The notes: a model not told the origin generated them from the letters alone. DNA of 64,000 nt from an uncultured Mollicutes bacterium (GCA_900550145.1 URRF01000003.1:1973-65972); one strand, 5' to 3'; counted from the stretch's first letter, positions 44,301-58,456 are shown. A program made the numbers and translations.

Positions 44301-45224
44301 TTAATTATTAAATCTATCAAATGTAATTCCTTTAATTTTTTCTTCTTTTATATCCTTTAAAATAATAGAGTAAACCTTATCATAGTCAATTTGGTTTCCT
44401 TTTGTTATACATCCTCTGTTTTTACCTATTTCATCAAGTGTAAGAACAATGTCATTGTAATTAACCTTGTTTATTTTATATCTTTCAATAAGTTTATCTT
44501 TGTAATATGTATCTAATTTTTTTAATATGTGTATAGAAATATCACTTAAATTCAATATTTCTTCTTTTATAGCACTCATTGCACATAAATTGAGTGCTAT
44601 TTCTTCATTATCTAATTTTGGCCATAAAATTCCTGGACTATCTAATAATTCTAAGTCATTATTTATTCTTATCCAATTTAGGTTTTTAGTTATACCAGGC
44701 ATATTCCCAGTTTTAGCCGCTTTTTTACCAACCAATCTATTTATTAATGTGGATTTACCTACATTAGGTATTCCAATAATAAGTGCACGATGGCTTCTCT
44801 TTTTAAGCCCCTTTTCTTTTCTTTTATCATCTAATGGTTTAAGTATTTCTTTTGTCTTTATAATTATTTTATCAATATTTTTATTATTAACTAAGTCAAC
44901 GGGTATAACATTATAACCTTTATTTTCATAATCTTTAATAAATTTATTTGTTTCTTCTAAATCACATAAATCGTATTTAGTCATAATTAAAATTTTGGGT
45001 TTATTCCCAATTGATTCATCAATATCCTTTATTTTTGATGAATATGGTATTCTTGAATCTATTACTTCGTAAATAATATCAATTAAATTTATATTTTCTT
45101 TAATTAATCTTTTTGTTTTTGCCATATGACCTGGATACCAGTTGATACTCGTTGATGGTAAACTTTTTGTATCTTCGTACATTTTTTTATTTTTTCTCAT
45201 TTCTCTTTTTGAATGCATATCCAT
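44301..45224 (-). CDS. rbgA: Ribosome biogenesis GTPase A (YlqF)
   Basis: INWYPGHMAK, circularly permuted GTPase motifs (TKYD, then GIPNVGKST). The first about 29 codons are the repeated att segment. Confidence 0.9.
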   Translation of the reverse strand: MDMHSKREMRKNKKMYEDTKSLPSTSINWYPGHMAKTKRLIKENINLIDIIYEVIDSRIPYSSKIKDIDESIGNKPKILIMTKYDLCDLEETNKFIKDYENKGYNVIPVDLVNNKNIDKIIIKTKEILKPLDDKRKEKGLKKRSHRALIIGIPNVGKSTLINRLVGKKAAKTGNMPGITKNLNWIRINNDLELLDSPGILWPKLDNEEIALNLCAMSAIKEEILNLSDISIHILKKLDTYYKDKLIERYKINKVNYNDIVLTLDEIGKNRGCITKGNQIDYDKVYSIILKDIKEEKIKGITFDRFNN

Positions 45225-45238
45225 TATTTATCACTTCC
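45136..45238 (-). repeat. att copy 1 (functional rbgA RBS plus codons 1-29)
   Basis: GGAAGTGATAAATAATGGATATG...AGTATCAACTGGTA encodes MDMHSKREMRKNKKMYEDTKSLPSTSINW, continuing YPGHMAK. Confidence 0.85.
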
Positions 45239-46246
45239 ATTCTCTATCATTCTTGTTTCATTTAAAAAATTATCAAAGTCTGATTTATATAATTTATCTT
45301 GTTTAACTTTAAATTTATCATACTCTTTATAAGCTAATTCTTTTGCTACACTTGCCGATATTTTCCCTGCACTGTGTAATATTTCTTTATCATTAAATTG
45401 CAAAAATGCATTCAATTTTTCTACCCAATCTTTCATAGTCATAGCATTATGATTTTCTGCTTGCAATTCTGCATAATCTAAATACATTGTTACTATTCTA
45501 TTCAAATCTTTTAATTCCTTTTCATTTAAATAGTTTTTTGCAATGTCCACGTCATATTTATAGATCGGTCCATCAGGAGAATTTTTCCAATTGGTTAGTC
45601 CCATATTTTCTTTTTCTGAATCAACTCTGTTATATATTATTTCAGCTGCAGTATTACCAGTTATTGCATAATGTAATTTATTTTGAACTGTTTTAAAAAA
45701 TTCTTTTGTTATTTCTGAATCTTTATCATAATCAACACTACAAGAAGAATATATATCTGTTATTTTTTGGTAAAATCTTCTCTCGCTTGAACGAATGTTT
45801 CTAATTCTTTCAAGTGTTTCTTCAAAATAATCCTCGCCAAATATGTAATTAGGATTTTTTAATCTTTCATCATCCATAACTACACCTTTTATCATATATT
45901 CTTTTAATATTTTAGTAGCCCAAATTCTAAAGTTGGTTGCTTTTTTTGAATTTACTCTATATCCAACTGCAATAATCATATCAAGGTTATATATCTTTAC
46001 AGGTTTTTTAGAATTATCAACGTCGGTTTTTCCGACGGTATTATTTTCATCAAGTTCACCACTATTTAATATATTATTAATATGTTCTGTTATTGTGCTT
46101 CTTCCTACACCAAACAATTCTGCAATTAAATTTTGAGTAAGCCATATGTCATTTTTTATTAACATTACACTAACCTTAATATCATTGTTTGAATCTCTAT
46201 ATATTAAAAAGTCATGATTAGTTATTTGTAAGTTTTTATTGTCCAT
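45224..46246 (-). CDS. rhuM: RhuM-family protein (copy 1)
   Basis: Signature IIAVGYRVNSKKATNFRIWATKILKEYMIKG with an N-terminal HTH-like LFGVGRSTITEHI. Its stop overlaps the rbgA ATG (TAATG). Confidence 0.75.
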   Translation of the reverse strand: MDNKNLQITNHDFLIYRDSNNDIKVSVMLIKNDIWLTQNLIAELFGVGRSTITEHINNILNSGELDENNTVGKTDVDNSKKPVKIYNLDMIIAVGYRVNSKKATNFRIWATKILKEYMIKGVVMDDERLKNPNYIFGEDYFEETLERIRNIRSSERRFYQKITDIYSSCSVDYDKDSEITKEFFKTVQNKLHYAITGNTAAEIIYNRVDSEKENMGLTNWKNSPDGPIYKYDVDIAKNYLNEKELKDLNRIVTMYLDYAELQAENHNAMTMKDWVEKLNAFLQFNDKEILHSAGKISASVAKELAYKEYDKFKVKQDKLYKSDFDNFLNETRMIENGSDK

Positions 46247-46273
46247 TTTTTATTCTCCTTTCTTTTAAATTTT

Positions 46274-47467
46274 TTATTTAATATCAATTTTAACATTTTT
46301 ATTCTTATCAATATAAATACATTTTACTTTATTTTCTAATTCTAATCTAGTAATATTAGATAAATTTAATTTTTCATTTATAATTTCAATTAGCTTATTT
46401 TCACTAATAGATTCATTATTTTCACAAGTTTTATTTCTATAGTAGTTAGAGCAATAGTAATAAACTCTTTCTTTTGAAGTTCGTTTTATCATATTACCGC
46501 CACAACATTTGCACTTTAAAAAGCCAGATAAAATACCTATACTTCCATCTTTATTTACTTTAGCTTGTCTATTTAAAATATCTTGCACTTTATCAAATTT
46601 TTCTTTACTTATAATTGCTTCGTGATGATTAGGAGTTATAATCCAATTTTCCTTTTCTAATTGAATTTGTTTGTTAACTCTATAATTTAATTTTCTTCTC
46701 TTGCCCTGGAGTAATGTTCCTGTATAATTTTCGTTTTTCAATATTGTATTTACCATTTCAGGATTCCATTTTTTCATAACTGATACATCTTTATTCTTAT
46801 CAATATTTAAATACTCGCTTGGAGTTAATATATCATTATCATTTAAAAAGTCAGTAACTTGTCTTCTACTTTTGCCATCAAGTATCATATCAAATATTTT
46901 TCTAATTATATGTGATACATTTTTATCAATTAAAAATTTATGCTTATCTTTTGGATTTTTTATATATCCATAAGGAGCTAATTTTCCAACAAATTCACCA
47001 TTTTGTTTCTTCACAATTAGAGAACTTCTTACTTTTTTTGATATGTCTTTTGCGTACATATCATTAAATAAATTCTTCAATGCTAAATAATCATCACTAT
47101 AATAATCCGATGAATCAATTTCATAATTTTCATCTACCGAAATTACAGATACTCCCATAGCAGGAAATACTACTTCTACAAAATTACCAGTTTCAATATA
47201 ATTTCTACCAAGTCTTGATAAATCTTTTATAAGTATTACATCTATTTTCTTATTTTTTATATCTTCTAACATTCTTTGAAATTCTGGTCTATCAAAATTA
47301 GTACCCGAATAACCATCATCTATATAATAATCAATTAATTTATATTCTCTATGTTCTTTTAAATAATTATCTATAATTAATTTTTGATTAGTTATGCTAT
47401 TTGATTCTTTTTCATTACTATATTCTTCTTTTGATAAACGAAGATACGCTGCTACCTTATATGTCAT
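46274..47467 (-). CDS. Large serine recombinase
   Basis: N-terminal resolvase domain (AAYLRLSKEE, DDGYSGTNFDRPEF, DLSRLGRN) and a C-terminal Cys-rich zinc ribbon (CKCCGG...YYYCSNY). Confidence 0.9.
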   Translation of the reverse strand: MTYKVAAYLRLSKEEYSNEKESNSITNQKLIIDNYLKEHREYKLIDYYIDDGYSGTNFDRPEFQRMLEDIKNKKIDVILIKDLSRLGRNYIETGNFVEVVFPAMGVSVISVDENYEIDSSDYYSDDYLALKNLFNDMYAKDISKKVRSSLIVKKQNGEFVGKLAPYGYIKNPKDKHKFLIDKNVSHIIRKIFDMILDGKSRRQVTDFLNDNDILTPSEYLNIDKNKDVSVMKKWNPEMVNTILKNENYTGTLLQGKRRKLNYRVNKQIQLEKENWIITPNHHEAIISKEKFDKVQDILNRQAKVNKDGSIGILSGFLKCKCCGGNMIKRTSKERVYYYCSNYYRNKTCENNESISENKLIEIINEKLNLSNITRLELENKVKCIYIDKNKNVKIDIK

Positions 47468-47484
47468 CTTAATATTACAACTTT

Positions 47485-48219
47485 CTATAAAATTTCACAA
47501 AGAAGATTTTGTTCTTCTTTTTTTATTTCATTTTCAATTATCCATTTTATATCTTCTATTGATTTATCAATATTAAATATGCCATTACCTACTGGATAAT
47601 AAACAGGATAAACTTTATATTTGTTTTTATTAATTTCTATTTTGTGGCATTTTTTTCTATTTTCAGATACAGATATCTTTTTGTTTAAAATAATAGAACT
47701 AACTTGGTTTCCAAAAGTAATAATTATTTTTGGTTTAATTATGTTTATTTCTTTGAATAATAAATCAAGATATTTTTTCAACACTTCATCAGGCAACGGT
47801 TTTGCATCTATTTGTGTACATTTACCTAAATTAGTAATGAACAATTTATTTTTTTCAATTTCTTCGTAAACATAGTTGCAAAACTCATAATCCCATTCTT
47901 TTGGTTTCTTTTCTTGAATTTTGTTAAATGTTTCTTCACTTAATAAATCAACTTTATAGAACAACTTCCATATGTTTTTAGTTCCTAACCATGGCGACTT
48001 TCTACCTTTCCAAGATTTATCACTAGCAATATTTTTTCCTGTAGGATTCATAAAAACAAAACATATATCAGGATTTTTTTCACATCCACCATTATATATA
48101 GAATCTAATTCCTTAGCACCATATTTAACTTGTAATTCATCATAATCTTTTCTTAAATCTTCTATCTTCAAAATATTCACCTTCTTATAAAAAAGTTTCT
48201 TTAAGTAGTTCTTACCCAA
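47485..48219 (-). CDS. Uracil-DNA glycosylase superfamily protein with non-canonical motifs
   Basis: Family-4-like layout (FVFMNPTGK..., LFITNLGKC, IIKPKIIITFGN), but GEAPG is replaced by MNPTG and HPS by YYPVG. Confidence 0.5.
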   Translation of the reverse strand: MGKNYLKKLFYKKVNILKIEDLRKDYDELQVKYGAKELDSIYNGGCEKNPDICFVFMNPTGKNIASDKSWKGRKSPWLGTKNIWKLFYKVDLLSEETFNKIQEKKPKEWDYEFCNYVYEEIEKNKLFITNLGKCTQIDAKPLPDEVLKKYLDLLFKEINIIKPKIIITFGNQVSSIILNKKISVSENRKKCHKIEINKNKYKVYPVYYPVGNGIFNIDKSIEDIKWIIENEIKKEEQNLLCEIL

Positions 48220-48326
48220 TTTTTCTTATAATTTTTATTAATTTTTTATTAAAAATTGTAAAAAGAAATTTAATTAAAAGCCTTATAAAATAAGAGTTTT
48301 AATTAGAGTTTATATAAGTCGTTCTT

Positions 48327-48429
48327 TACCAGTTGATACTCGTTGATGGTAAACTTTTTGTATCCGCGTTCATTTTTTTATTTTTTCTCATTTCTCTTTT
48401 TTGATACATATCCATTATTTATCACTTTC
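48327..48429 (-). repeat. att copy 2 (orphan rbgA 5' segment)
   Basis: Above 90% identical to copy 1 by eye. Encodes MDMYQKREMRKNKKMNADTKSLPSTSINW then TAA. Homology ends at TGGTA. Confidence 0.85.
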
Positions 48430-48435
48430 TTTTAA

Positions 48436-49068
48436 TTATTTCATAAACTTATTTCCATAACTTTTATCAATAAAATTAACATACTCATCTTTATATTTTT
48501 CAAGCGATTCGTCTACATTAATCCAATATACACTTGTTAGTATTCCATCATATGGATCAATTTCAGTTCTTTCTAGCTTTCCGCCTAACGCTTCCATGGT
48601 TTTACTTGAACCTAAATTTTCCACGTCACAATCTAACATCACTTTATCCAGTCCAATCTTTTTTGCTTCAATCAATCCAAGATATAAATTTATCTTATTA
48701 TATCCTCTTCTTCTTTCAGTAGGTCTTATTCCATAACCAATATTTCCACCAAATTGTTTCATTTCTTCTGTCAAATTCCACCTAACGTTGATTGTACCCA
48801 CAATTTTGTTATCATTTTTTCTAATAAGTAAAAAAGTCTTTCCCTGGCATCTTCCATTTTTTTCTGCATATTCTCTGTTTTCCATATTCAAACATCTTTC
48901 TAAAGCCTGTTCAAAAGTATATCCTTCTAATATTTTATCCAACGATCCAGTTCCATTAATGTCTGATTTATATTCTACAAATTCATTTATATAATTTATT
49001 ATTTCTTTCTTACGTTCTAAAGATGGCGTTTCTAAATAAAATATTTCCATTAAATTATTATTATTCAT
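48436..49068 (-). CDS. GNAT-family acetyltransferase
   Basis: IGYGIRPTERRRGYNKINL (motif A-like) and a beta-bulge region; 210 aa. Confidence 0.65.
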   Translation of the reverse strand: MNNNNLMEIFYLETPSLERKKEIINYINEFVEYKSDINGTGSLDKILEGYTFEQALERCLNMENREYAEKNGRCQGKTFLLIRKNDNKIVGTINVRWNLTEEMKQFGGNIGYGIRPTERRRGYNKINLYLGLIEAKKIGLDKVMLDCDVENLGSSKTMEALGGKLERTEIDPYDGILTSVYWINVDESLEKYKDEYVNFIDKSYGNKFMK

Positions 49069-49116
49069 AATAAATACCTCCTTTTATTTTTTACAATAAT
49101 TGCATTTAAAAATTTT

Positions 49117-49958
49117 TCATTTCATTTTTTCTAGTTTCTTTTTATCTTTATTTTCTATTTGTTTCTTTTGTCTTTCAAGTTCTTTCAAACTCTTTTTAGG
49201 TGTTGGTATTTCTTCAGGCATCATTCCACCAATATCTGCAATTGCTTTCCTAACTTTTTTACCTACCTCATAATGTACATCTTTTGCTTCTTTCTCACCT
49301 TGTACATTGTCTTTTAAAAGTTTTTGTTTTGTTTGATTTATTCTAAATAAATTAGCAACTAATTCATCTTCATTCATATTATCTAAAATATCTTCTCTAT
49401 AGCGTAATTTTTTTCTTTTAAAAATATCATCAACTGTTTCAACATTATATAAACCTTTATACCCTGCATTATGAAACTCAGCCATATTTTTAACACCTGC
49501 TGCAGAGGCAACTCTTTGCAAAGTATAATTACCTTGCTTTGATAAAATCTTTTTTCGTCATCTGATAATGAATCATATTCCTGTTCTGTTATTTCTTGTT
49601 TTCTTGTTTGTATAGCAAAATAGGTTTGTCCTAAGGCAACAACTTCTTTGCTTGGTTCTGCATTTTGCACTATCAAATAACATATATATCTTGAAAGTTT
49701 ATAATCTTTAATAATCTCTTCTTTTCCTTTACCAGTTTTTATTGGCTTGTTGAAATCAACAAGCCAATCTTCTTCGCTTGAAACGCTATTATTTACTGAT
49801 AAAACTGCTTTTTCTATTACTTTTTGAAAATTTCTCCAATCCTTGTATTCCAATACTTTTTGTAATTCACGTGCATACCAATATTCATTTTCATAATCAT
49901 CTATATGTTTAATATTCTCAAAAATATTGTTAGTATATCTATCTCCAATTTTCTTCAT
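49117..49958 (-). pseudogene. dinD: DinD-like (DNA-damage-inducible protein D) gene split by one frameshift
   Basis: Two overlapping ORFs (49383-49958 and 49117-49521) together give a DinD-like sequence (KHIDDYENEYWYARELQKVLEY...KLSRYICYLIVQN...). The frame changes near 49520-49560. Confidence 0.65.
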
Positions 49959-50123
49959 TATTACCTCTTATTTATTGATTCATACAAAAATTTTCCATAA
50001 GTCGTTATTACCTCTATTTTATTTAAAATAATTATCATTTTTCAGTTATAAAATGCAAAAAGAAATAAAATTGAAATTCTTTATTTATAAGCCTTCATGG
50101 GAAGTTTTCCATAATTCGGTTTA

Positions 50124-50225
50124 TACCACGAAATGGAAACTTTTGAAAAACTTTCTTGATTGTCATTATTTTTCTTTTCTTGTCTCATTTTTCTCTTTTG
50201 ATACATATCCATTTTAATCACTTCC
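50124..50225 (-). repeat. att copy 3 (divergent orphan rbgA 5' segment)
   Basis: GGAAGTGATTAAAATGGATATGTATCAAAAG... encodes MDMYQKRKMRQEKKNNDNQESFSKVSISW-YKPNYGKLPMKAYK*. It shares the RBS, the MDMYQKR start and the ...TGGTA end. Confidence 0.7.
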
Positions 50226-50727
50226 TTTTTAATTTTTTACCATAATATTCAACATCAATTTCTGTTCCATCTGGATATACTTCTTTAGAATTTTTAATAT
50301 GTTCTACAAATCCATAATGTTTATATATCTCTTTGTTTCTTATTTCTTCTAGTTCTACTCCTAATGTTAATACAGTATAACCTTTATTTTTTAAATCTTC
50401 TTCCATAAATTTATACAATATAGAAAAATATCCTTTTCCTTTGTATTCTTTGTTAGTTCTAAAAGCAGTCAAGTATGCAGTTGTATTATCTACTAATTTA
50501 TTACTATTTTGAACAATATCACTAGTTAATACAGCAGTGGCCTCACATATTATTTGGTCATTAATTATTCCATAGTAAGGAATAATTTTACCATTTTTAT
50601 AATTTTTAATGTTTTGTTCTTTCCAAATAATCCAATTTCCTTTTTTGGTTGCCACCGATATTTCATAATCCCATTTTTTATTCATTTCTTCAATAGTAGC
50701 AATTTTACATATATAGTTTTTCATCAC
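50218..50727 (-). CDS. GNAT-family acetyltransferase
   Basis: FRTNKEYKGKGYFSILYKFME (Q/RxxGxG/A-like) and C-terminal YKHYGF. The stop lies inside the RBS of att copy 3. Confidence 0.7.
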   Translation of the reverse strand: MMKNYICKIATIEEMNKKWDYEISVATKKGNWIIWKEQNIKNYKNGKIIPYYGIINDQIICEATAVLTSDIVQNSNKLVDNTTAYLTAFRTNKEYKGKGYFSILYKFMEEDLKNKGYTVLTLGVELEEIRNKEIYKHYGFVEHIKNSKEVYPDGTEIDVEYYGKKLKRK

Positions 50728-50758
50728 TTTTACCTCCCTGCACTATCAAATGGATTCA

Positions 50759-51799
50759 TCATTTTTTCTCTTTATTTTCACTTAAATATTTATTATAAAA
50801 TTCATCCATTGAAGAAATGTATTTTTGATCTTGTATAACTCTAAATTTTTCATATTCTTTTTCTGCTTTTTCTACTGCTTCTTTATGAGATATACTGCCA
50901 CTATTATTTAATACTTCTTTTCTTCTAAACTTTAATAAATCATCAGTTGCATTTATCCAATCCTTCATTGTCATAACATGTCTTTGTTTTGCTTCATCTT
51001 CAGCAAATACTAAAAACATATTTGTTAAATCTTTTAAATTATTCATTTCTTCTTCGTTTAAATAATTTTTTGCAATAACTACATCATATTTATATATTAA
51101 ACCATCAGGAGAATTTTTCCAATTAGTTAGTCCCATATGTTCTTTATCTGAGTTTGCTCTACTATATATTAATTCGGCAGCAGTATGTCCACTTATAGCA
51201 TAATGCAACTTATTTTGAACTATTTTAAAGAAAGTATAAGCTTCTTCTGACTTAGGATTGTAATCCGTTGCTGTTGCAATAAATAAATCAGTGATTTTTT
51301 GGTATGCCATTCTTTCACTTACTCTGATTGTTTTGATTCGTTCTAATAATTCATCAAAATATTTTGCATCATATTTATTTCCATTTATAAAACGTTCATC
51401 ATTTAATACAAATCCTTTAATCATATATTCTTTTAAAACTTTTGTTGCCCATATTCTAAATTCAGTCGCTTTTTTAGAATTAATTCTATATCCCACAGCA
51501 ATTATAGCATCAAGGCTATAAACTTCAGTATTATAATTTTTTTCGTCAGGTGCAGTTATTTCCATTTTGGAAACAACTGAATTTTTATCTAATTCGTTTT
51601 CTGCAAATATATTTTTTAAATGTTTTGATATTGCTGGTACACCAACATTGAAAACTTTCGACATACCTTTTTGTGATAGCCATAAAGTTTCATCTTTATA
51701 AATAGCATCTACTATAATGTTACCTTCACTATTTTTATATATAATTAGTTTATTATCTTCCATCAATACTCTCCTTTCCTTTAGTTTTTCATAAGTCAT
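50759..51799 (-). CDS. rhuM: RhuM-family protein (copy 2)
   Basis: IIAVGYRINSKKATEFRIWATKVLKEYMIKG signature; colinear with copy 1. Confidence 0.75.
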   Translation of the reverse strand: MTYEKLKERRVLMEDNKLIIYKNSEGNIIVDAIYKDETLWLSQKGMSKVFNVGVPAISKHLKNIFAENELDKNSVVSKMEITAPDEKNYNTEVYSLDAIIAVGYRINSKKATEFRIWATKVLKEYMIKGFVLNDERFINGNKYDAKYFDELLERIKTIRVSERMAYQKITDLFIATATDYNPKSEEAYTFFKIVQNKLHYAISGHTAAELIYSRANSDKEHMGLTNWKNSPDGLIYKYDVVIAKNYLNEEEMNNLKDLTNMFLVFAEDEAKQRHVMTMKDWINATDDLLKFRRKEVLNNSGSISHKEAVEKAEKEYEKFRVIQDQKYISSMDEFYNKYLSENKEKK

Positions 51800-51916
51800 A
51801 CAACTATCAATTTAAGTTAAAATTTTATTAAAAAATGTCCCAAAATGTAAAAAGCATTTAGTAAAAATTTCTTTTATTTTCAAGTATTCAAGTGTATTTT
51901 TTCATAATTCTCCACT

Positions 51917-51976
51917 TACCAATTGATACTCGTAGATGGTAAACTTTTTTCTTTTTTATCCATTATTTTCACTTCC
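51917..51976 (-). repeat. att copy 4 (short orphan rbgA 5' segment)
   Basis: GGAAGTGAAAATAATGGATAAAAAAGAAAAAAGTTTACCATCTACGAGTATCAATTGGTAA encodes MDKKEKSLPSTSINW*. Confidence 0.8.
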
Positions 51977-52009
51977 TTTTTTAGAGAACCTTTTTTACAC
52001 TTTTTACAA

Positions 52010-52417
52010 CTATTTTTTATAATAATTTAGTTCTTCTAATTCTTTTATATTTTCTTTAACCCATGGGTTACCTGCAACCATTTTATTTATTTTTAATGAT
52101 ACCTTCATTTCATTAGTTGTAATATTCATAGTATTCTCAAGTAAAATACCTTTTTTCATTTCAAATTTTGTAATATTTTTCCATTCTATTAAACAACAAT
52201 CTAATATATTCCAGTTGCCTTCTACTGGAAAAACATGAATTCCTTTTTCATCAAAACCAAATAAGTATGATGTTGCTCTTTCTGATGCAATTACGATTAC
52301 TGGTCCAGCCGGTAAAATCCATTTTACTTTATATGTACTATGTCCCGGTACAATATTATTTTTATAACTAAAATTCCTTTTATTTAATTCTGCTTTTACT
52401 TTTTCTAAATTAAGCAT
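52010..52417 (-). CDS. 135-aa hypothetical protein
   Basis: ORF with an SD. No motif recognised; a bacterial PH-like fold is only a guess. Confidence 0.35.
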   Translation of the reverse strand: MLNLEKVKAELNKRNFSYKNNIVPGHSTYKVKWILPAGPVIVIASERATSYLFGFDEKGIHVFPVEGNWNILDCCLIEWKNITKFEMKKGILLENTMNITTNEMKVSLKINKMVAGNPWVKENIKELEELNYYKK

Positions 52418-52441
52418 ATTTCTAATCTTCCTTTCATTTCA

Positions 52442-53467
52442 TTATTTATTTGTTTCTTCTATTAATAAATCAAAATCTGATTTATATAATTTATCTTGTT
52501 TAACTCTATATTTTTCAAATTCTGTTAATGCTTTATCACAAGCTATTTCATGTGAGATTTTTCCAGCATCTTTTAATATATCCCTATCATCTGCAAGCAA
52601 AAACTTATCTATTCTAGATGACCAGTCTTCCATCGTCATTGGAATATGTCTTCTCGCCCTATTTTCAGCAATTTCTAAAAATGCACTAACAATTCCTTCT
52701 AAATCTCTTAACTCTTCTTTATTTAAATAATTCTTAGCAATTATTACATCTGATTCCATAATTTTACCATTAGGACTATTTTTCCATGAAGTCAAACCCA
52801 TATGTTCTTTTTCTGAATTAACCCTATTATATATAAGTTCTGCTGCCGTTTGTTTTGATACAGCAAAGTGCATTTTATTTTGAACCCTTTTAAAGAAATT
52901 GATTGATATAGGAGATTTAGGATCATAATCTATACTTGTAGCATAAATGTCAGTTACTTTTTGATAAAATCTTCTTTCAGATAATCTAATTTCTCGGATT
53001 TCTTCTAATAACTTTTCAAAATAATCTTTATCAATAAATGAACCATTTTTCATTCTTTCTTTATCTAATACATATCCTTGAATTGTAAATGTTTTAAGTA
53101 TATTTGTTGCCCATCTTCTAAATTGTGTCGCTCTTAATGAATTTACTCTATATCCAACTGATATTATTGCATCTAAATTGTAAAATTCAACATTTCTCTT
53201 AACACTTCTGTGTCCCTCTTTTTGAACTAATTCCATTTTGGAATAAGTTGAATCTTTATCTAACTCCTTTTCATTATAGATATTAATTAAATGCTTTGCT
53301 ATGGCCGGTTGTTCTACATTAAATAATTCCGACATAGCTTTTTGAGTCATCCATAAAGTTTCATTTTCATATCTTACTTGTATGCCTTTGTCTTTTTCTT
53401 GAAGTTTGAATGTTATAAATTCTTCAGTGCTACTTCTTACAATTAAATCTTTTGTCAATTTTATCAT
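52442..53467 (-). CDS. rhuM: RhuM-family protein (copy 3, divergent N-terminus)
   Basis: IISVGYRVNSLRATQFRRWATNILKTFTIQG signature. Confidence 0.75.
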   Translation of the reverse strand: MIKLTKDLIVRSSTEEFITFKLQEKDKGIQVRYENETLWMTQKAMSELFNVEQPAIAKHLINIYNEKELDKDSTYSKMELVQKEGHRSVKRNVEFYNLDAIISVGYRVNSLRATQFRRWATNILKTFTIQGYVLDKERMKNGSFIDKDYFEKLLEEIREIRLSERRFYQKVTDIYATSIDYDPKSPISINFFKRVQNKMHFAVSKQTAAELIYNRVNSEKEHMGLTSWKNSPNGKIMESDVIIAKNYLNKEELRDLEGIVSAFLEIAENRARRHIPMTMEDWSSRIDKFLLADDRDILKDAGKISHEIACDKALTEFEKYRVKQDKLYKSDFDLLIEETNK

Positions 53468-53504
53468 CTCCTATATCTAAAATCTTAGTTTTTCATGAGT
53501 TAGT

Positions 53505-53561
53505 ATATCCCAATTTATATTGGTTTTATTTATATTTTTATTATCCATTATTTTCAACTTC
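53505..53561 (-). repeat. att copy 5 (most degenerate)
   Basis: GAAGTTGAAAATAATGGATAATAAA...ATAAATTGG. The first 21 nt match copy 4 at 20/21 with one indel. Encodes MDNKNINKTNINW... and overlaps the 3' end of the 135-aa ORF. Confidence 0.5.
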
Positions 53562-53948
53562 TTGCTTAAGCATTTCCCAACTTTTAAAATATATACATTC
53601 ATTTTTATCATTAAACATTATCTGATAAATTCCATCATAAACATCGTTATTTTGTTCTAGATACCAATTAGCTATCACAGTATTTCCATCTATTGCTAAT
53701 ACATTTATTTCTATATTATGTATTTCTTCATTTTTAACATGATACCATTCTTCCTTTATTTCTTCGATAGTCAAAAACGGTTTTATAAAAGGCGTTTCTT
53801 GATAAAATTTTGTGTTAGTAAATAAACTACACACACCATCTATATTTTTCTCAAGCCAGTATTTTTTTAATTTGTATATCCATTTTTCAGCAAATTCTCG
53901 TTTAATCATTTTTCCAAATATTTTAAAATTTATTCTTTGTCTTTTCAA
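53541..53948 (-). CDS. 135-aa hypothetical protein (NTF2/SnoaL-like by pattern only)
   Basis: ORF whose last codons (EVENNG*) are the RBS/ATG region of att copy 5. Confidence 0.35.
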   Translation of the reverse strand: MKRQRINFKIFGKMIKREFAEKWIYKLKKYWLEKNIDGVCSLFTNTKFYQETPFIKPFLTIEEIKEEWYHVKNEEIHNIEINVLAIDGNTVIANWYLEQNNDVYDGIYQIMFNDKNECIYFKSWEMLKQEVENNG

Positions 53949-53962
53949 AGATTATATCAAAA

Positions 53963-54082
53963 TTATATATTTTTAAAATTAATATCATTATTTATTAACA
54001 TTACACTAACCTTAATATCATTGTTTGAATCCTTATATATTAAAAAGTCATGATTAGTTATTTGCCGGCTTTTATTGTCCAT
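53963..54082 (-). pseudogene. N-terminal relic of a rhuM copy-1-type gene
   Basis: About 110 bp is near-identical to 46146-46270, covering the first about 30 codons (MDNKSRQITNHDFLIYKDSNNDIKVSVMLI...) and the upstream region. Homology is then lost. Confidence 0.8.
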
Positions 54083-54085
54083 TTG

Positions 54086-54346
54086 TTATTTTTCTTTCTT
54101 TTGAACTGTTCTAAATTTTCGAATAGTTGATTCTTCTTTTAATTCATTATCATTATATATTTTTTTAATATGATAATTTATTGTATTTATTTCTACACTA
54201 TAGAGAGTTGATAACATTTTTTGAATAAGCTAAATATTTTCATGTTCATATCTTACTTCAATTGTTTCTTTATCAGTTCCGATTGCTGCAATATAAGTTA
54301 GATATTCAGCAGCACTTGATCTAATCGTAATACTATTTTTTTTCAT
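54086..54346 (-). pseudogene. Truncated rhuM copy-3-type N-terminal fragment with an in-frame stop
   Basis: MKKNSITIRSSAAEYLTYIA...VRYEHENI*LIQKML...INYHIKKIYNDNEL. A TAG sits where the paralogues have W, and the fragment ends after about 85 codons. Confidence 0.7.
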
Positions 54347-54516
54347 AAAATGACCTCCTCGTATAATATAGTTAAGATATTTTTTAACTATATTTTCTTA
54401 TTTAGATTTTTGTAGAGATAGAGTGGTTTTAGTGGCCTCCTTGAACATTTGGTTCTTAAGAAAGACTAAAGCCTCTTCTTTACAAAATGGATATTGGTTT
54501 TATTTCTTTTATATCA

Positions 54517-55038
54517 TTACTCTCTTTCTAAATTTTTTCTTTTGCTTAGTGAGAATATTTCAGTGCTTTTTTCATTATATAATTTGTCTGCCAATATTAT
54601 TGATTGCTTTAACAATTCTTCTAAGTTATCTATCGGAATCTTCTCATAATCTTCTTGATATAACCAATCTAAATAATTTGTTTTTTAGCATCAGTTAGTC
54701 TGCCATATATTATTTTACCAGAATGTAGCCAATATCCAAATTCTACATTCACAGCAAAAGCGGGTATATCAGGTAAACTTCTAGGAATCCAAAACATAAT
54801 AACTGTAGAATTTGTTAATGCTCCTCTTTCACACATTGCTCGATCTACATAATCTGCTTTTAGTTTCTAGGTTGAGTATTCAGAAACTTTAACTACGCCA
54901 TCAAATCCTAACTCACTTAACCTTTTACAAGCAGTAGTTCTCTGTGATTCTGTATTTCTATCTCTTGAGGTCGAACCGGCCAAAAATATAGATTTTTTAT
55001 TTTTTTATAACGGCTTGATCTGAATAATTAATAATCAT
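54517..55038 (-). pseudogene. Decayed nucleoside 2-deoxyribosyltransferase-like (Nuc_deoxyri_tr2-type) gene
   Basis: SIFLAGSTSRD...VIMFWIPRSLPDIPAFAVNVEFGYW...NYLDWLYQE, readable only across two frameshifts (near 55000 and 54695, both at A-runs) and one TAG (near 54869). Confidence 0.55.
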
Positions 55039-55118
55039 AATATCATTATCATCTCTCTAATAATATATCTTGAAAGTTTATGTTCCTATATATTTATTTG
55101 AACATTACTATTTTTTTT

Positions 55119-55146
55119 AACAACTTGTTGACCTCAACGAGTTGTT
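55119..55146. repeat. 28-bp near-perfect palindrome
   Basis: AACAACTtGTTGAccTCAACgAGTTGTT. No flanking T-run in a terminator configuration. Confidence 0.6.
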
Positions 55147-55210
55147 CATTAACATCAAACCCAGAATTTTATATCCTTTTGTCTTTATTTAGGAGATGAT
55201 TGTATGCTTT

Positions 55211-55502
55211 TCAATCATCAGCAGTTAACGAGCATTTCTCGGTAACTGATTTTTTATCCAATTCATTACAACATTCCTTTTGTGAAAGCCATAATATTTC
55301 ATCTTTATATATAGTGTCTATTAAATAACAAGCATATCTAGATAATTTGACATCCATAATATTTCTTGCTGATTTTAAACCTACTTTTATATTCTAATGC
55401 CATTATTAGTTCTCTTGCTAACTAAAATTCATTGCCATAATCATCAATGTGTTTTATACCTTCAAGGATACTATTAATATTTTTAGTTTCTATTTTCTAC
55501 AT
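55211..55502 (-). pseudogene. Mosaic relic: dinD-like N-terminus fused to a rhuM-like fragment
   Basis: M*KIETKNINSILEGIKHIDDYGNEF*LARELIMALEYK (dinD-like, two stops), then KLSRYACYLI joined to DTIYKDEILWLSQKE (rhuM copy-2-like). Confidence 0.6.
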
Positions 55503-55711
55503 TATTACCCCCTATTACTCTTTTTTTATCAGTTTTTTATTACCTAATATAGAGTTCATTATTTCGTTAAATCTTTTTATAAATATCTTACTATTTTTCA
55601 ATATTTCAAGTTATTAGATATGACTAAATAATCCTGCAGAAATTACAATTTAATTATAATATACATGGTAACATAATGTCAACTTCTTGGTAAGATTATT
55701 ACCAAAGAAAA

Positions 55712-55738: not shown

Positions 55739-56818
55739 CTATTGATATTTTTTAATATTATCTATTCTAGCGGCAAAATATGGCATGTCTCTTGAACTTT
55801 CTTTTAAGAATATGGCAAAGGTATCATCTACATTAAAGTTTCTTGATTCTTTTACAGGAGCACTAGTAACATTTGTGTCAATAGCGGCTTCACTTTTTAC
55901 CCTACCACCTTTTTCATCTAGTTTGAAGTTTATTGTTTGAACTGCCTTTTCAATTACATATTCTCTATTTTCATCATCATAAAAAGGTTTATTTTGTAGT
56001 TCATTATATTCTCTTTTAACATTAAAGTTAATCATTGGAACCTTGAAAGTATCATTGTTACTAAAGTTTTTGCTTCCAGTATATTTATTAGCATCATTAG
56101 TCATATTACTATATATTTCATTAAATGTTTTACCTTTTGGATTCTTATAGAATATTACTTCATCATTACTTTTAGTAGTTAATTTAATTGCAAAATCATC
56201 TTTAGAATTATAGAATAACACTATTATCTGATTTCTTACTTCACTAGAACTATTAGAAGCTACACCAAAGTATTTTACATCTTCATAATTACCAAAGTTA
56301 CTATTTTCTAAAACTGTAAATCTCTGTTTATATTCAAATTCTCGGTATAACATTGTATAAAAGAAATATCTTCTTAAATCAGGATCATCTAAGGCATCTT
56401 CCCCCCAATCAAAATCATCTAAAATGTCGCTAGTCTGATTAAATTTTTCTTTAATGCCATTTACTATTTCTTCTTTTAACTTTATTGTCTTAGGCCCAAA
56501 TACTTTAAAGTAATAACTATCAGATATCATATCTTCAGTAAAAGATTCTTTATTTAAATTAGTAGCCATTATCTCTTCAGGGTTAAATACAATATCTTTT
56601 TTTATTATTTCATTCTTCATATCATTCCAAACAAGTTGGAATGTAGCACAATAACTACTATCAGATGATATTTCATCATCAAATGTTGGTACTACAGCTA
56701 CACCTTCGGTAACTGGAATACTTTTATTATTTTTTCTTATTCTAAATATATATATTAATGCAAGTGATACTATAGCAAGTACAACAAATACTAGTGTTAT
56801 AATTTTATTTTTTGTCAT
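55739..56818 (-). CDS. Membrane-anchored serpin-like protein
   Basis: N-terminal TM anchor. The C-terminal KAVQTINFKLDEKGGRVKSEAAIDTNV...FNVDDTFAIFLKE...PYFAARIDNI resembles the serpin hinge, reactive-centre loop and s4B-s5B region. The N-terminal half is divergent. Confidence 0.5.
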   Translation of the reverse strand: MTKNKIITLVFVVLAIVSLALIYIFRIRKNNKSIPVTEGVAVVPTFDDEISSDSSYCATFQLVWNDMKNEIIKKDIVFNPEEIMATNLNKESFTEDMISDSYYFKVFGPKTIKLKEEIVNGIKEKFNQTSDILDDFDWGEDALDDPDLRRYFFYTMLYREFEYKQRFTVLENSNFGNYEDVKYFGVASNSSSEVRNQIIVLFYNSKDDFAIKLTTKSNDEVIFYKNPKGKTFNEIYSNMTNDANKYTGSKNFSNNDTFKVPMINFNVKREYNELQNKPFYDDENREYVIEKAVQTINFKLDEKGGRVKSEAAIDTNVTSAPVKESRNFNVDDTFAIFLKESSRDMPYFAARIDNIKKYQ

Positions 56819-56837
56819 TTATTTTTTTCCTTACTCA

Positions 56838-56969
56838 TTAGTAAACTTTAGTAATAGTAGCCTCGCCAATTTTTCTTCTTTTTTCATCATTTAGTCTTAA
56901 CTCTATTACTTTAGTACCTGCCTTTATTAAAGTAAATGGTTCATCATTTAATTTCATCATATGAATCAT
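56838..56969 (-). pseudogene. Truncated ASCH-domain fragment (43 codons)
   Basis: MIHMMKLNDEPFTLIKAGTKVIELRLNDEKRRKIGEAT... resembles an ASCH N-terminus, then stops. Not in the track. Confidence 0.4.
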
Positions 56970-57020
56970 CTCTATCACCTTTAATATTATTTTAGCATAT
57001 ATATTTTTATTTGTCTATTA

Positions 57021-57049
57021 AAAAACATCTCAAAAATAGAGATGTTTTG
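57021..57049 (-). terminator. Terminator of the collagen-like gene
   Basis: AAAACATCTC/GAGATGTTTT 10-bp stem followed by a minus-strand T-run. Confidence 0.75.
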
Positions 57050-57052
57050 ACA

Positions 57053-57826
57053 TTATGATATTTTAACTATATTTAAATATGCACTTGTATCAGAAGCCGG
57101 CGATATAGTAACTGCTGTAGTAGATTCTAATGATAAACCAATTTGATCATCAGCACTAAAAGCATTAATTGTGCTTCCAACAAAATCAGAATCTACATTT
57201 GCTGTAACATTCTTACTAATAGTGGTACTTCCAATAGGTGTAGCGTTTTGTTTTACATTTAATGTTATATCTGCATTAACATTAGAACTACCTGAGAAAT
57301 AGTAATCAACTTTATATACTCCATCAGCAGGAATTGTTAGTTTATTTTGTGTACCAAGTGTTATACCATTAGATGGACCATTACTTCCAAGTGGTACATC
57401 TTGAGAAATATTTGCCTCTAAAGTTATAGTATTTTCAGTGGTATCATACTTTCTTCCATAAGTATTAGTCTGCGTAATACCGGCAGCGCCACTTGGACCA
57501 GTTGGTCCCATCGGACCTGCTGGGCCTATTGCTCCCGTTGGACCTGCGGGACCTTGAGGTCCGGTTAATCCTTGTGGACCGATTGGGCCTGTAATTCCTG
57601 TGTTTCCTCTTGGTATAGTAAAGTTTAAAACAGCATTTTGATTAGTACCAACATTAACTACACTAGCGTTAGTTCCTGGATCACCAGTAGTAGTAGTTCC
57701 CACTGTAATAGTGGCGGGTCCTTGAGGTCCTGTCGGCCCCATCGGACCTACAATAACAGGAGTACAATTACATTTTTTACCTGCTTCAAGAATATTTCTT
57801 ATATTATCAGAGCAATTGTTACTCAT
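57053..57826 (-). CDS. Collagen-like (GXX repeat) BclA-type exosporium/surface protein
   Basis: Two G-X-Y tracts (GPMGPTGPQGP; GITGPIGPQGLTGPQGPAGPTGAIGPAGPMGPTGPSGAAG) and a beta-rich C-terminal domain. Confidence 0.75.
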   Translation of the reverse strand: MSNNCSDNIRNILEAGKKCNCTPVIVGPMGPTGPQGPATITVGTTTTGDPGTNASVVNVGTNQNAVLNFTIPRGNTGITGPIGPQGLTGPQGPAGPTGAIGPAGPMGPTGPSGAAGITQTNTYGRKYDTTENTITLEANISQDVPLGSNGPSNGITLGTQNKLTIPADGVYKVDYYFSGSSNVNADITLNVKQNATPIGSTTISKNVTANVDSDFVGSTINAFSADDQIGLSLESTTAVTISPASDTSAYLNIVKIS

Positions 57827-57912
57827 TTTGATTCTCCTTTCATTTTATTTTATGAAAGAAGTTAAAACATAATTTTACTATTGACTATAATATGTTATTC
57901 TTTAATAGTAAA

Positions 57913-58419
57913 TTATACAGTGCCTATTTTTGTTATAGGCCATAATCTAAATACTGATTTTCCTACTATATCTTTTTCATCAATTAAGCCTATTGATCTA
58001 CTATCTTTAGATATAGGACGATTATCTCCCAAAACAAGATATTTACCTTCTGGTATACTGCTACAAGTACATATTTCTTCTAAGTTAAAATCTTTAGTAT
58101 TTAAATGTGTATAGTTTTCTTGAACTAACTTATCATTTACATATAATTTATTATTCTTGTATGAAATATGTTCTCCAGGTAATCCTATTACTCTCTTAAT
58201 TATTTCTTCTTTATCCTTCTTTATTACTACTACATCAAATCTCTTAATAGTTTTCTCGTTATATCTTATTTTTCTTACTAGTAATAACTCTCCATCATTA
58301 AAATTAGGCTTCATTGAACTACCGGATACTATTACTGGAGTTATTATAAAAGTTCTAACTAGTATTACAACTACTACAATAATAACATAAGGATATAATT
58401 CTTTAATAATTTTTTTCAT
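57913..58419 (-). CDS. lepB: Signal peptidase I
   Basis: TM anchor, SGSSMKP (catalytic Ser), KRVIGLPGE (Lys box) and GDNRPISKDSR. Confidence 0.9.
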   Translation of the reverse strand: MKKIIKELYPYVIIVVVVILVRTFIITPVIVSGSSMKPNFNDGELLLVRKIRYNEKTIKRFDVVVIKKDKEEIIKRVIGLPGEHISYKNNKLYVNDKLVQENYTHLNTKDFNLEEICTCSSIPEGKYLVLGDNRPISKDSRSIGLIDEKDIVGKSVFRLWPITKIGTV

Positions 58420-58456
58420 CTTTCACCTCAATAATAAAAAGATAGTAGCAAAGCTA

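Follow-up and report, generated by a model that had tools for sequence, protein, structure and literature searches.

The window analysed here, a 64,000-nt stretch of DNA from an uncultured Mollicutes bacterium, raises the question of why the start of the essential gene rbgA should be present several times within one short region. An earlier note had described five copies of the rbgA ribosome-binding site and first codons in a single orientation, and these copies (c1 to c5, Table 1) are real, with c1 and c2 sharing 94% identity over 101 nt (E 5e-40); all lie on the minus strand, in the orientation of rbgA, and each ends at a Trp codon. Comparison with other genomes makes it highly probable that the repeats are att junctions of tiny rbgA-targeting elements moved by a large serine recombinase of 397 aa that resembles TnpX, and that the window combines the array of one organism (A) with that of another (B).

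Junctions at the start of rbgA

The P arm of c1 consists of a Shine-Dalgarno sequence (GGAAGTGA) and then MDMHSKREMRKNKKMYEDTKSLPSTSINW, so that codons 1–29 of rbgA are element-derived and the body begins with YPGHMAK. As had been claimed, c2 and c4 read ...INW and then TAA; c4 is short (MDKKEKSLPSTSINW-TAA), whilst c2 continues into the P' arm TAAAGAACGACTTATATAAAC. The c3 copy, with the P' arm TATAAACCGAATTATGGAAAACTTCCC directly after it, aligns with c2 over 66 nt at 77% identity, and as it shares ~90% identity with the start of rbgA in genome L111 it represents a true second version of this 5' end (MDMYQKRKMRQEKKNNDNQESFSKVSISW), one which sits fused on rbgA in both organism A (L087) and L111. 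c4 matches c1 at 94% over 33 nt (E 5e-9), and this core recurs in a junction of organism B, with another left arm. The match of c5 is weak within the window, with an exact 16 nt shared with c4 (E 7.5e-4); its left arm (MDNKNINKTNINW) is a native-like short 5' end resembling MNENKTNINW-type N-termini, and in the genomes compared (L111, L055, L115/L116) such arms either are joined to the gene, at a site that appears empty, or occupy the outermost position. A second P'-like motif (GGTAATAACGACTTATGGAAAA; 49985..50010, minus strand), read from the sequence against the P' consensus, is present just ahead of the Bro-N gene and is possibly the remnant of one more junction.

Across all genomes the common core is TGG only, followed by TA or TT at gene junctions and by TA or GA at orphan junctions, and the proposal that homology always ends at TGGTA does not hold, as c5 itself has TGGGA. 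At the orphan junctions of more than 20 genomes TGG is followed by a conserved, non-rbgA P' arm (consensus GAAATAACGACTTATGGAAAACTTCC), and the P arm is laid out as a Shine-Dalgarno sequence, ATG and 10–29 codons ending in ...(I/L)(N/S)W. Reconstructed attP sequences have dyad symmetry centred between the T and the G of the Trp codon in five of six cases; the c2-type P' arm beside the recombinase-bearing element of the window fits both consensus and symmetry poorly. An excised circle or attP-bearing contig was looked for and none was found. A survey for rbgA 5'-end duplications elsewhere revealed arrays with two to five orphan copies in L004, L016, L021, L022, L107 and others. One L004 copy continues past TGG into a decayed rbgA-like WYHGHLAQTQE.

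The intervals between copies carry one to three co-oriented genes each, and recombinase Pfam domains occur only in the c2–c1 interval, as previously described. The RhuM gene of this interval matches the PADLOC candidate defence PDC-S05 (E 2e-142) and its stop codon shares 1 nt with the ATG of rbgA, whilst in several related arrays the UDG-like gene immediately precedes the recombinase or what remains of one. Paralogous RhuM genes of the window are 68–80% identical. The Bro-N gene is intact (284 aa) in L107/L114, and the organism A cassette has an identical layout in L087–L096; a Pfam search with its 135-aa protein gave no family match. Past c5, cassette debris extends up to about 55560, including RhuM N-terminal fragments (53981-54082, 54089-54334, 55199-55324) and Bro-N fragments (55199-55502).

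Table 1. Features around rbgA, numbered from the first letter of the window
Feature	Position	Strand	Remarks
rbgA, 307 aa, organism B	44301..45224	-	Pfam MMR_HSR1
c1, gene-proximal attR-like junction fused to rbgA	45136..45241	-	P arm + TGG core + rbgA body arm
RhuM-family gene, 340 aa, final gene of recombinase-bearing element	45224..46246	-	Pfam PF13310, E 3e-110
Large serine recombinase, 397 aa	46274..47467	-	Pfam Resolvase + Recombinase + Zn_ribbon_recom
UDG-superfamily (family-4-like) gene, opens recombinase-bearing element	47485..48219	-	Pfam PF03167; weak NCBIfam family-4 UDG match
c2, orphan rbgA 5' end, attL-type junction	48327..48432	-	94% to c1
GNAT acetyltransferase, 210 aa, cargo of Bro-N/GNAT cassette	48436..49068	-	Pfam
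Bro-N domain gene, frameshifted (191 aa + 134 aa ORFs)	49117..49958	-	Pfam Bro-N; PADLOC PDC-S13
c3, orphan rbgA 5' end, second type	50124..50230 (start approximate)	-	
GNAT acetyltransferase, 169 aa, cargo of organism B RhuM/GNAT cassette	50218..50727	-	Pfam
RhuM-family gene, hybrid	50759..51799	-	Pfam; body = A haplotype, last ~20 codons = B haplotype
Switch point, 77 nt identical in A, B and window	50820..50896	.	Inside RhuM gene; above = A, below = B
c4, short orphan rbgA 5' end, organism A array	51917..51976	-	
Organism A cassette	52010..53467	-	RhuM 341 aa (52442..53467, Pfam) + 135-aa protein (52010..52417)
c5, degenerate outer junction, organism A	53505..53561	-	Core TGG then GA, P'-like arm GATATACTAACTCATGAAAAAC
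Older decayed material, organism A, incl. 135-aa ORF	53541..55560	-	
Organism A flank: 359-aa protein, BclA-like collagen protein, lepB (168 aa), rplS	55739..58888	-	Pfam

Origin of the five-fold stack

From 64000 to 50820 (c5, c4, rplS and lepB) the window is about 99.4% identical to organism A (L087–L096, 10 samples), and from 50896 to 33005 and beyond (c3, c2, c1 and rbgA) it is 99–100% identical to organism B (L097, L108–L113), to which the remainder down to position 1 is likewise assigned. As the switch from A to B occurs within 77 identical nt, the five-fold stack which the earlier note had placed in one genome is most likely a chimera, in which the A array (c5, c4) was joined to the B array (c3, c2, c1) by an assembly error, although this comparison is of assemblies rather than reads and the window may instead represent a rare true A/B recombinant. 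A faithful contig, meaning a single genome with c1 to c5 all placed between the rplS-lepB pair and the rbgA of the window, would agree with the continuous sequence and the similar composition of both parts (window GC 25.6%), and since arrays of four to five junctions are found elsewhere (L022, L016, L107) a stack of five is conceivable as such. This is nonetheless improbable, given that organism A has its own different rbgA (RbgA 56.5% identical in amino acids to that of B) and another downstream flank in all 10 samples, that organism B has its own rimM-trmD-rplS-lepB flank in 4 samples (L108/L110/L113/L114), with RplS about 60% and LepB 41.5% identical to those of A, and that the hybrid RhuM protein was absent from all other assemblies in which it was sought. 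The rplS-lepB pair 12.7 kb upstream, previously taken as the neighbours of this rbgA, would therefore be A's and not its true flank; in L108, B's own pair is 7.7 kb from rbgA on the upstream side, a distance that grows by about 1.8 kb in L110/L114 with their extra cassette. The organism A array is without a recombinase, whereas that of organism B has an intact one.

A recombinase linked to a mosaic gene

The closest solved catalytic domain to that of the recombinase is TnpX (PDB 2mhc, E 9e-24), and the catalytic Y-x-R-x-S motif is invariant. Scores for XisF, CcrB and CcrC fell under the NCBIfam cut-offs (112 bits for the CcrB model, cut-off 900). The AlphaFold model is poor overall (mean pLDDT 51.8), and it is from the protein length and the confident C-terminal 90 residues only that the enzyme is predicted to be without a long coiled coil after the zinc ribbon. 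Linkage of this recombinase to rbgA is conserved. When linkage is defined as rbgA on the recombinase strand and no more than 6 kb downstream, 23 of 27 species genomes with a relative of at least 46% identity have it just ahead of rbgA (9 of 11 loci at ≥70% identity, 14 of 16 at 46–70%), compared with 1 of 41 for relatives below 46%, and the linked rbgA is often 54–105 nt downstream.

The first 89 nt of rbgA share 92–94% identity across genera (versus L004/L001), whilst the remainder of the gene shares about 62%; likewise, the N-terminal 29 aa of RbgA are 86% identical versus 42% for the body. More than 25 distinct N-terminal peptides, all ending INW, occur among RbgA relatives. Judged from these sequences, rbgA has a mosaic 5' end that is shared horizontally, and together with the linkage this argues for the central proposal of the earlier note, that elements with a replacement rbgA 5' end insert at the Trp codon via a large serine recombinase.

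Comparison of related and unrelated hosts also revealed differently filled sites and one that is apparently empty. L110/L114 match L108/L113 except for one additional RhuM-GNAT cassette, placed precisely between ...TTTCGTGG and TA. In L115/L116 the gene reads MNENKTNINW-YPGHMAK, with no orphan copy in the 6–9 kb of upstream sequence examined; this is apparently an empty site, from a related organism and not the species of A or B, and in L111 the outermost orphan is the same MNENKTNINW arm, then P' and a cassette. The Bro-N/GNAT210 cassette is found directly before the rbgA of another organism (L111) at 98.4% identity, and L001 has the UDG-recombinase-RhuM element at 96.5% identity on an rbgA body only 61% identical. 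Going by such matches, recombinase-less cassettes are common to different genera. This does not favour the suggestion that the newest insertion is nearest the gene, and neither does the sole clean within-species polymorphism, the RhuM-GNAT cassette, which is outermost and without a recombinase.

Mechanism, alternatives and known systems

Across genomes, the junction anatomy, the recombinase linkage, the mosaic 5' end, the apparently empty site, the one-cassette polymorphism and the sharing between genera make the following mechanism highly probable. Very small elements or cassettes (about 1.2–3.2 kb, one to three genes), hosted by uncultured gut bacteria, have two arms, a P arm with the rbgA start and a P' arm. 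Crossover would take place at the Trp codon, within the core TGG and most likely at the TG dinucleotide. The 5' end already present on rbgA would be pushed outward to become an orphan, and the one brought by the element would be joined to the rbgA body; rbgA would then be read from the element, and the essential gene would thus stay intact. Repeated insertion and recombinase loss would leave tandem recombinase-less cassettes beside at most a few intact elements, with RhuM (candidate defence PDC-S05), Bro-N/KilA-N, GNAT, UDG-like and other genes as cargo. The recombinase may act in trans on recombinase-less cassettes, the reaction may be reversible without a directionality factor, and rbgA is presumably expressed by read-through.

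Tandem duplication or homologous recombination among rbgA fragments, without site-specific recombination, could draw on direct repeats of ~100 nt, which might allow unequal crossing-over, and on the added homology of the RhuM paralogues. It has next to no probability, however, as junction anatomy already contradicts it: all copies end at the same TGG and none runs into the rbgA body, apart from the decayed stretch in the L004 copy, and in many genomes the core is followed by a conserved arm that is not rbgA sequence. Tight linkage with one recombinase clade, and near-identical 5' ends (92–94%) on bodies only 62% identical, are equally at odds with duplication. An origin of the intervals from prophages or phage satellites, integrated by a phage serine integrase and since reduced to remnants, is very unlikely; Bro-N and KilA-N are frequent in phages, which commonly integrate by large serine recombinases, but the intact element (UDG-like, recombinase, RhuM) is only about 3.2 kb, and structural, replication and packaging genes are absent from every array inspected.

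A closer contender, though still a doubtful one, is a true integron analogue, in which a single resident serine recombinase would take up cassettes that lack their own, cut them out and reshuffle them in trans, at any junction since these are all nearly equivalent as sites, with read-through towards rbgA. The precise gain or loss of RhuM-GNAT and Bro-N/GNAT210 cassettes and their presence in different genera would fit this, as would the short, TnpX-like enzyme; the P' arms (CTTATGGAAAAC) resemble the rbgA body arm (CATATGGCAAAAAC) and the left arms are alike, so that internal junctions look like targets. The cargo is all co-oriented, and no terminator-like site was found on the minus strand between 45224 and 53500, but a promoter scan gave 100 hits, no more than the 109 expected in AT-rich DNA. 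Moreover, the recombinase lies within a cassette and not on a fixed platform, the organism A array has none, no circles were found, and co-transfer with a recombinase-bearing neighbor followed by differential loss would give the same distribution. Integrons themselves rely on IntI, a tyrosine recombinase on a fixed platform, which recombines attI with folded single-stranded attC, and on the Pc promoter. The description of the locus as integron-like stands as an analogy, in that arrays of small, co-oriented, mostly single-gene cassettes are parted by recombination sites, but not for the enzyme, which is of the serine type and carried within a cassette, nor for the sites, which appear to be double-stranded, dyad-symmetric and to contain rbgA codons.

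TnpX of Tn4451 (Clostridium perfringens), closest in catalytic-domain sequence, excises and inserts without an accessory factor; it is about 700 aa with relaxed target choice, whereas the 397-aa enzyme here is strictly rbgA-linked. In CIME/ICE accretion (ICESt1/ICESt3, Streptococcus thermophilus), which is site-specific and tandem, att-keeping elements without recombination genes likewise persist beside a functional one, but with a tyrosine integrase, at the fda 3' end and with much larger elements.

Although the earlier note did not recognise a described system, tandem serine-recombinase islands at single-copy essential genes are already known. In staphylococci, SCC/SCCmec and tandem SCC-like cassettes at rlmH depend on the large serine recombinases CcrAB/CcrC, and as here a single conserved housekeeping gene is targeted, several att sites bound tandem cassettes, many cassettes have no recombinase of their own and anti-phage defence is enriched in the cargo (PMC11470126). 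SCC differs in using the rlmH 3' end, as opposed to the rbgA 5' end with its start codon and N-terminus replaced, in its Ccr enzymes, of which the single 397-aa protein is no orthologue, and in size (17–68 kb versus 1–3 kb); mobilisation by a neighbor's enzyme is known for recombinase-less staphylococcal cassettes (PMC11470126), and may, by analogy, apply to those at rbgA. Dehalococcoides ssrA islands (DsiB/DsiA serine recombinases) also stand in tandem at an essential single-copy gene whose end is repeated directly at the borders of each island, and about half are without an integration module and are read, citing the CIME/ICE accretion concept, as cis-mobilisable and formed by accretion (PMC3146451). 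They target an RNA gene at its 3' end, the repeats measuring 20 bp, and replace no coding sequence; their size is much greater, and they carry an integration module of six genes along with two recombinases (PMC3146451). Nor is the rbgA 5' end new as a target, since, according to the portions of the sources consulted, streptococcal ICEs and derivatives insert there, keeping the N-terminus and maybe replacing the upstream region including the promoter (PMC4701971, PMC7168690). As described in those portions, these are large conjugative elements with tyrosine integrases, and no orphan rbgA 5'-end arrays are mentioned there (PMC4701971, PMC7168690). With the small serine-recombinase elements proposed here, each cassette stacked at the start of rbgA would supply a new start for that essential gene.

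Copies of the rbgA 5' end and their junctions

The ribosome-binding site and first codons of rbgA, which the earlier note had reported five times over, do recur at five places in the window (c1 to c5; see table). The repeat unit consists of the SD GGAAGTGA, a spacer, ATGGAT and the codons up to a Trp, always in one orientation, in a region whose genes all lie on the minus strand. Among the window copies the homology ends at the Trp codon, and INW is followed by TAA in c2 and c4. Outside c5 the sequence holds decayed RhuM and Bro-N fragments to about 55560 and a weak motif resembling the conserved arm described below; a search by blastn-short and a junction regex found no intact copy there.

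Table. Features of the rbgA region in the window
Feature	Position	Strand	Description
rbgA	44301..45224	minus	Pfam MMR_HSR1
c1	45136-45241	minus	joined to rbgA
c2	48327-48432	minus	92% identity over 106 nt; 94% over 101 nt by a second comparison (E 5e-40)
c3	about 50124-50230	minus	second sequence type; 77% identity to c2 over 66 nt
c4	51917-51976	minus	short form; 94% identity to c1 over 33 nt (E 5e-9)
c5	53505-53561	minus	degenerate; exact 16-nt match to c4 (E 7.5e-4)
c2-c1 interval			UDG-like gene, 397-aa large serine recombinase (Resolvase, Recombinase, Zn_ribbon_recom), RhuM gene
c3-c2 interval			Bro-N gene (frameshifted), GNAT gene
c4-c3 interval			RhuM, GNAT
c5-c4 interval			RhuM, 135-aa protein without family match
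UDG-superfamily gene	47485-48219		family-4-like
Bro-N split	49383-49521		191-aa and 134-aa ORFs
Promoter-like site	55653-55682	minus	perfect TTGACA-18-TATAAT
BclA-like protein	57053-57826		collagen repeats, BclA C-terminal domain
Surface protein	58943-60895		650 aa, SpaA/thioester domain

Directly after TGG, the orphan copies of more than 20 genomes carry a conserved arm that is not rbgA sequence (the P' arm, consensus GAAATAACGACTTATGGAAAACTTCCTAGAAAGGCTTATA), which c3 fits well and c2, c4 and c5 more poorly. TGG is the only sequence common to all junctions and forms the short core that attL and attR share. Gene junctions read TGG/TA or TGG/TT and orphan junctions TGG/TA or TGG/GA, so that the earlier statement that homology always ends at TGGTA is not general, and TA was rejected as the crossover dinucleotide. 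In six cases attP was rebuilt by joining the P arm of a cassette (its SD, ATG and codons to Trp) to the P' arm of the same cassette. In five of the six, the strongest dyad symmetry had its centre between T and G in the Trp codon, with 14–17 of 26 pairs symmetric, a level matched by 0.2–6% of shuffled sequences; the exception was the recombinase-bearing element of the window, where the P' arm is of c2 type and shorter by one base. This layout is as expected of a serine-recombinase site with, we infer, TG as its central dinucleotide, and the P' arm also resembles the arm in the rbgA body (CTTATGGAAAAC compared with CATATGGCAAAAAC). One putative attP, deduced from sequence, is GTTTACCATCAACGAGTATCAAC-TGG-GAAATAACGACTTATGGAAAAC, and the putative native attB is AATAAAACCAATATAAAC-TGG-TATCCTGGACATATGGCAAAG. 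The attP joint of an excised circle was not found in the short recombinase-bearing contigs L002, L003 and L008.

Two of the genes between the copies also occur in related arrays. The Bro-N gene is split in the window and in L109, L110 and L112, and intact (284 aa) in L107 and L114, which makes it a strain-level pseudogene. The UDG-superfamily gene, with homologues in L001, L004 and L107-L113, lies directly upstream of the recombinase or its remnant in several related arrays and could be part of the element core. In another genome (L004:4359-7432, also L005 and L006) an orphan copy does not stop at TGG but runs on into decayed rbgA-like sequence, WYHGHLAQTQE, and then into fragments of amidase, glycoside hydrolase 3 and GatB; the cassette apparently carries chromosomal remnants of a former host.

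The recombinase and the replaced start of rbgA

The recombinase scored above cut-off for Pfam PF00239, PF07508 and PF13408, the domain set of a large serine recombinase, and residues Y8, R10 and S12 are invariant among 11 relatives. Among solved structures, the TnpX catalytic domain is its nearest relative. Identity with the Ccr enzymes was rejected, as all three NCBIfam models scored below cut-off (CcrB 112 of 900 bits, CcrC 101 of 900, CcrA 65 of 700), and it is not an XisF orthologue either. At least 7953 proteins are related at E 1e-20 or better, distant ones included, almost all from gut metagenomes or MAGs labelled Clostridium sp., Clostridia, Bacilli or 'Tenericutes', and the rbgA-linked clade is the portion of these at 46% identity or more.

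This linkage emerged from a survey of 79 loci in species-representative genomes, of which those whose sequence ran on for 1.5 kb or more past the recombinase were kept; rbgA was scored when on the same strand and no more than 6 kb downstream. It was present at 9 of 11 loci where the recombinase was 70% or more identical to that of the window, at 14 of 16 between 46 and 70%, and at a single locus of 41 below 46%. The 23 of 27 loci at 46% or above indicate a site-specific target common to related enzymes. In many loci the recombinase stop lies 54–105 nt from the INW codons, and at L013:3557-4850 the recombinase ORF continues in frame, with no stop codon, into the rbgA start (…EIIKKEVIKMDMYQKRK…INWYPGHMAK), which reflects a true fusion or read-through unless the sequence is in error.

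The AlphaFold2 model of the recombinase, built on an 11-sequence alignment, was too poor for a fold search (mean pLDDT 51.8), and its confident C-terminal part showed only short helices past the zinc ribbon. A coiled coil imposes directionality in phage integrases. The short length of the enzyme and these helices hint that the coiled coil is missing here, which would make excision and integration independent of an accessory factor plausible.

The start of rbgA differs in origin from the rest of the gene. Its first 89 nt are 92 and 94% identical to those of two other genomes (L004 and L001, respectively), compared with about 62% for the remainder; in the protein, identity is 86% over the 29 N-terminal residues and 42% over the body. 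These figures bear out the view that the elements carry a replacement 5' end, which on sequence comparison belongs to the element and not to the host gene body. Since each element rewrites the start and N-terminus, RbgA N-termini are hypervariable in these lineages: among 120 relatives of the window's RbgA (P0121-P0240; bodies 65–99% identical) there are more than 25 distinct N-terminal peptides of 5–33 residues, all ending in (I/V)(N/S)W immediately ahead of the conserved YPGHMAK. They include a long type (MDMYQKREMRKNKKM...SLPSTSINW), several of medium length, the frequent short MNENKTNINW and the minimal MDINW, and probably mark many different element families.

Occupancy of the site and the probably composite window

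Variation between genomes agrees with repeated site-specific integration, as do the junctions and the linkage of the recombinase to rbgA; the earlier note had proposed such integration, and both the differently filled sites and the rbgA 5'-end duplications in other genomes that it proposed to look for were found. Two contigs (L115 and L116) have rbgA with the native-looking start MNENKTNINW and no orphan copy in the 6 and 9 kb upstream, respectively, and can be taken as having an empty site. The same arm is the outermost orphan of L111, followed there by P' and by a Bro-N/GNAT210 cassette (the GNAT protein being of 210 aa) that is 98.4% identical to window 50128-48370, while the rbgA of L111, different from that of the window, carries a fused c3-type 5' end. 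Among strains of organism B, which matches the right part of the window, L110 and L114 equal L108 and L113 plus one RhuM-GNAT cassette, placed exactly between ...TTTCGTGG and TA and flanked on both sides by the duplicated arm. The element of UDG, recombinase and RhuM is 96.5% identical in L001, where the rbgA body is only 61% identical. Arrays in L004-L006, L016, L021, L022, L024 and L107 have 2–5 orphan junctions each. The last of these (L107:1-16800) is a fourth organism, whose array of about 16 kb ahead of rbgA has three or more clear junctions and several fragments of recombinases; its cargo includes KilA-N, YhcG, metallophosphatase, RNase_T, peptidase S51 and PNP_UDP.

The five repeats are real, but the five-fold stack is probably a composite of two organisms. 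A look-up of the window LepB returned 10 contigs from 10 samples (L087-L096, up to 1.27 Mb; organism A), which match window 64000-50744 at 99.4% and beyond the match hold a 265-aa GNAT protein, a different rbgA (303 aa, 56.5% amino acid identity) and different downstream genes. Look-ups of the SpoIID-like protein and of GNAT210 returned contigs of organism B, which match the window at 97–100% from 51921 or 50179 to 33005 and, in four samples, carry rimM-trmD-rplS(112 aa)-lepB(134 aa)-HD_4-347 aa upstream. RplS is about 60% and LepB 41.5% identical between the two organisms. At sites that distinguish the two, the window has the A variant down to 50897 and the B variant from 50819 on, with the 77 nt between (50820-50896) identical in A, B and window. 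By exact-protein look-up, the hybrid RhuM protein (queries of 346 and 334 aa) is on record in no other assembly; the 169-aa GNAT protein also returned no record, but its DNA is present in L110, so this is probably a matter of the start codon.

A chromosome hybrid between two genera is not credible; a misjoin at cassette sequence common to A and B is the simplest reading and probably the right one. On this reading, 64000-50820 would stem from A (L087-L096) and 50896-1 from B (L097-L114). Organism A would then have c5, c4 and its own gene-fused c3-type copy, in an array that has no recombinase, and organism B a truncated outer junction followed by c3 (in some strains), c2 and c1, with the recombinase intact. 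Nine independent B contigs (L098-L106) break off either within the rbgA 5' end or no more than 229 nt ahead of the gene, which shows that assemblers struggle at the repeat. Cassettes common to several genera lead metagenome assemblers to break or misjoin organisms here, and misassembly at the rbgA locus, as apparently in this window, is a warning for metagenomics.

On the side of organism A, a promoter-like site stands just past the terminator of a 359-aa gene at the outer edge of the array, and may be the promoter that rbgA originally had or one that belongs to a cassette. The BclA-like protein is encoded between lepB and the array, and the surface protein upstream of rplS.

Proposed mode of insertion and relation to known systems

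In the proposed mechanism, an excised element with attP (P arm-TG-P') would recombine with the rbgA 5' end, leaving the resident 5' end as an orphan adjoining P' and fusing the SD, ATG and codons of the element to the gene body. In the window the RhuM stop codon shares one base with the rbgA ATG, and every cassette has its last gene ending inside the SD-ATG spacer, so that translation of rbgA from the element is probable and transcription from it likely. A scan for minus-strand terminator-like sites between cassettes, weak in DNA of 25.6% GC, found none, and a promoter scan was uninformative at this GC content (100 promoter-like matches compared with 109 expected). That the newest copy lies nearest the gene, as had been supposed, is a chronology that is unproven.

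The cargo resembles candidate anti-phage genes, and the locus may plausibly be a defence hotspot in uncultured gut Firmicutes. In PADLOC, the RhuM genes match the candidate defence system PDC-S05, with E-values as low as 2e-142, and Bro-N matches PDC-S13; KilA-N, YhcG/DUF1016, metallophosphatase, RNase_T, HD and DUF2441 genes are among the cargo of other arrays. RhuM has been proposed as a toxin domain of multilevel defence loci (PMC3710099).

The earlier note, which did not recognise this as a described system, overstated its novelty. The rbgA 5' end is a documented target of streptococcal ICEs with tyrosine integrases (PMC4701971, PMC7168690). The streptococcal ICEs and IMEs at rbgA share the target end (PMC4701971), but have a tyrosine integrase with a conjugation or mobilisation module, whereas here the enzyme is a serine recombinase and neither module is present in the arrays. 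These ICEs were all that literature searches yielded at rbgA/ylqF, and the searches found no serine-recombinase system described there. The kind of arrangement, on the other hand, is already documented: SCC and SCC-like elements are tandem serine-recombinase cassettes at rlmH with defence cargo, whose recombinase-less members are moved by a neighbour's enzyme (PMC11470126), and Dehalococcoides has tandem islands at ssrA, half without an integration module (PMC3146451). SCC uses ccrAB or ccrC enzymes at the 3' end of rlmH (orfX), unlike the non-Ccr enzyme and rbgA 5' end here. New relative to SCC and the ssrA islands are thus the different enzyme clade, the coding 5' end with replacement of the N-terminus, the integron-size cassettes, and the wide occurrence in uncultured gut Firmicutes.

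Readings of the array as a prophage, a tandem duplication or a true integron all rank low. The arrays inspected hold no conjugation, mobilisation, relaxase or packaging genes. An integron encodes a tyrosine recombinase of the IntI type on a fixed platform, together with attI and Pc, while here a lone serine enzyme sits inside the c2-c1 cassette. The attC sites of integrons are imperfect palindromes acting as folded single strands; the junctions here are rbgA 5'-end copies with a P' arm. A serine-recombinase counterpart of the integron is a tentative and rather doubtful possibility: one compact, factor-independent enzyme would use every junction, gene-proximal and internal, to capture, excise and exchange recombinase-less defence cassettes of one or two genes in trans, in an array anchored to and transcribed into an essential gene, each cassette giving the start codon. 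The gain or loss of the recombinase-less outer cassette is precise, and such cassettes are common to several genera; this polymorphism and sharing fit action in trans, and also fit co-transfer with a neighbouring element followed by decay.

Repeated insertion by elements carrying their own rbgA 5' end adds a family widespread in human and animal guts to the few cases in which cassettes moved by a serine recombinase pile up at a single housekeeping gene. Its cassettes are unusually small and match those of integrons in size. As a short large serine recombinase whose attP and attB can be inferred, the enzyme may interest developers of integrase tools. For the organisms, the elements give an essential GTPase a new start and N-terminus and, if the integron-like reading is true, each cassette supplies the rbgA start codon, so that loss of the whole array without a restored start would be lethal.
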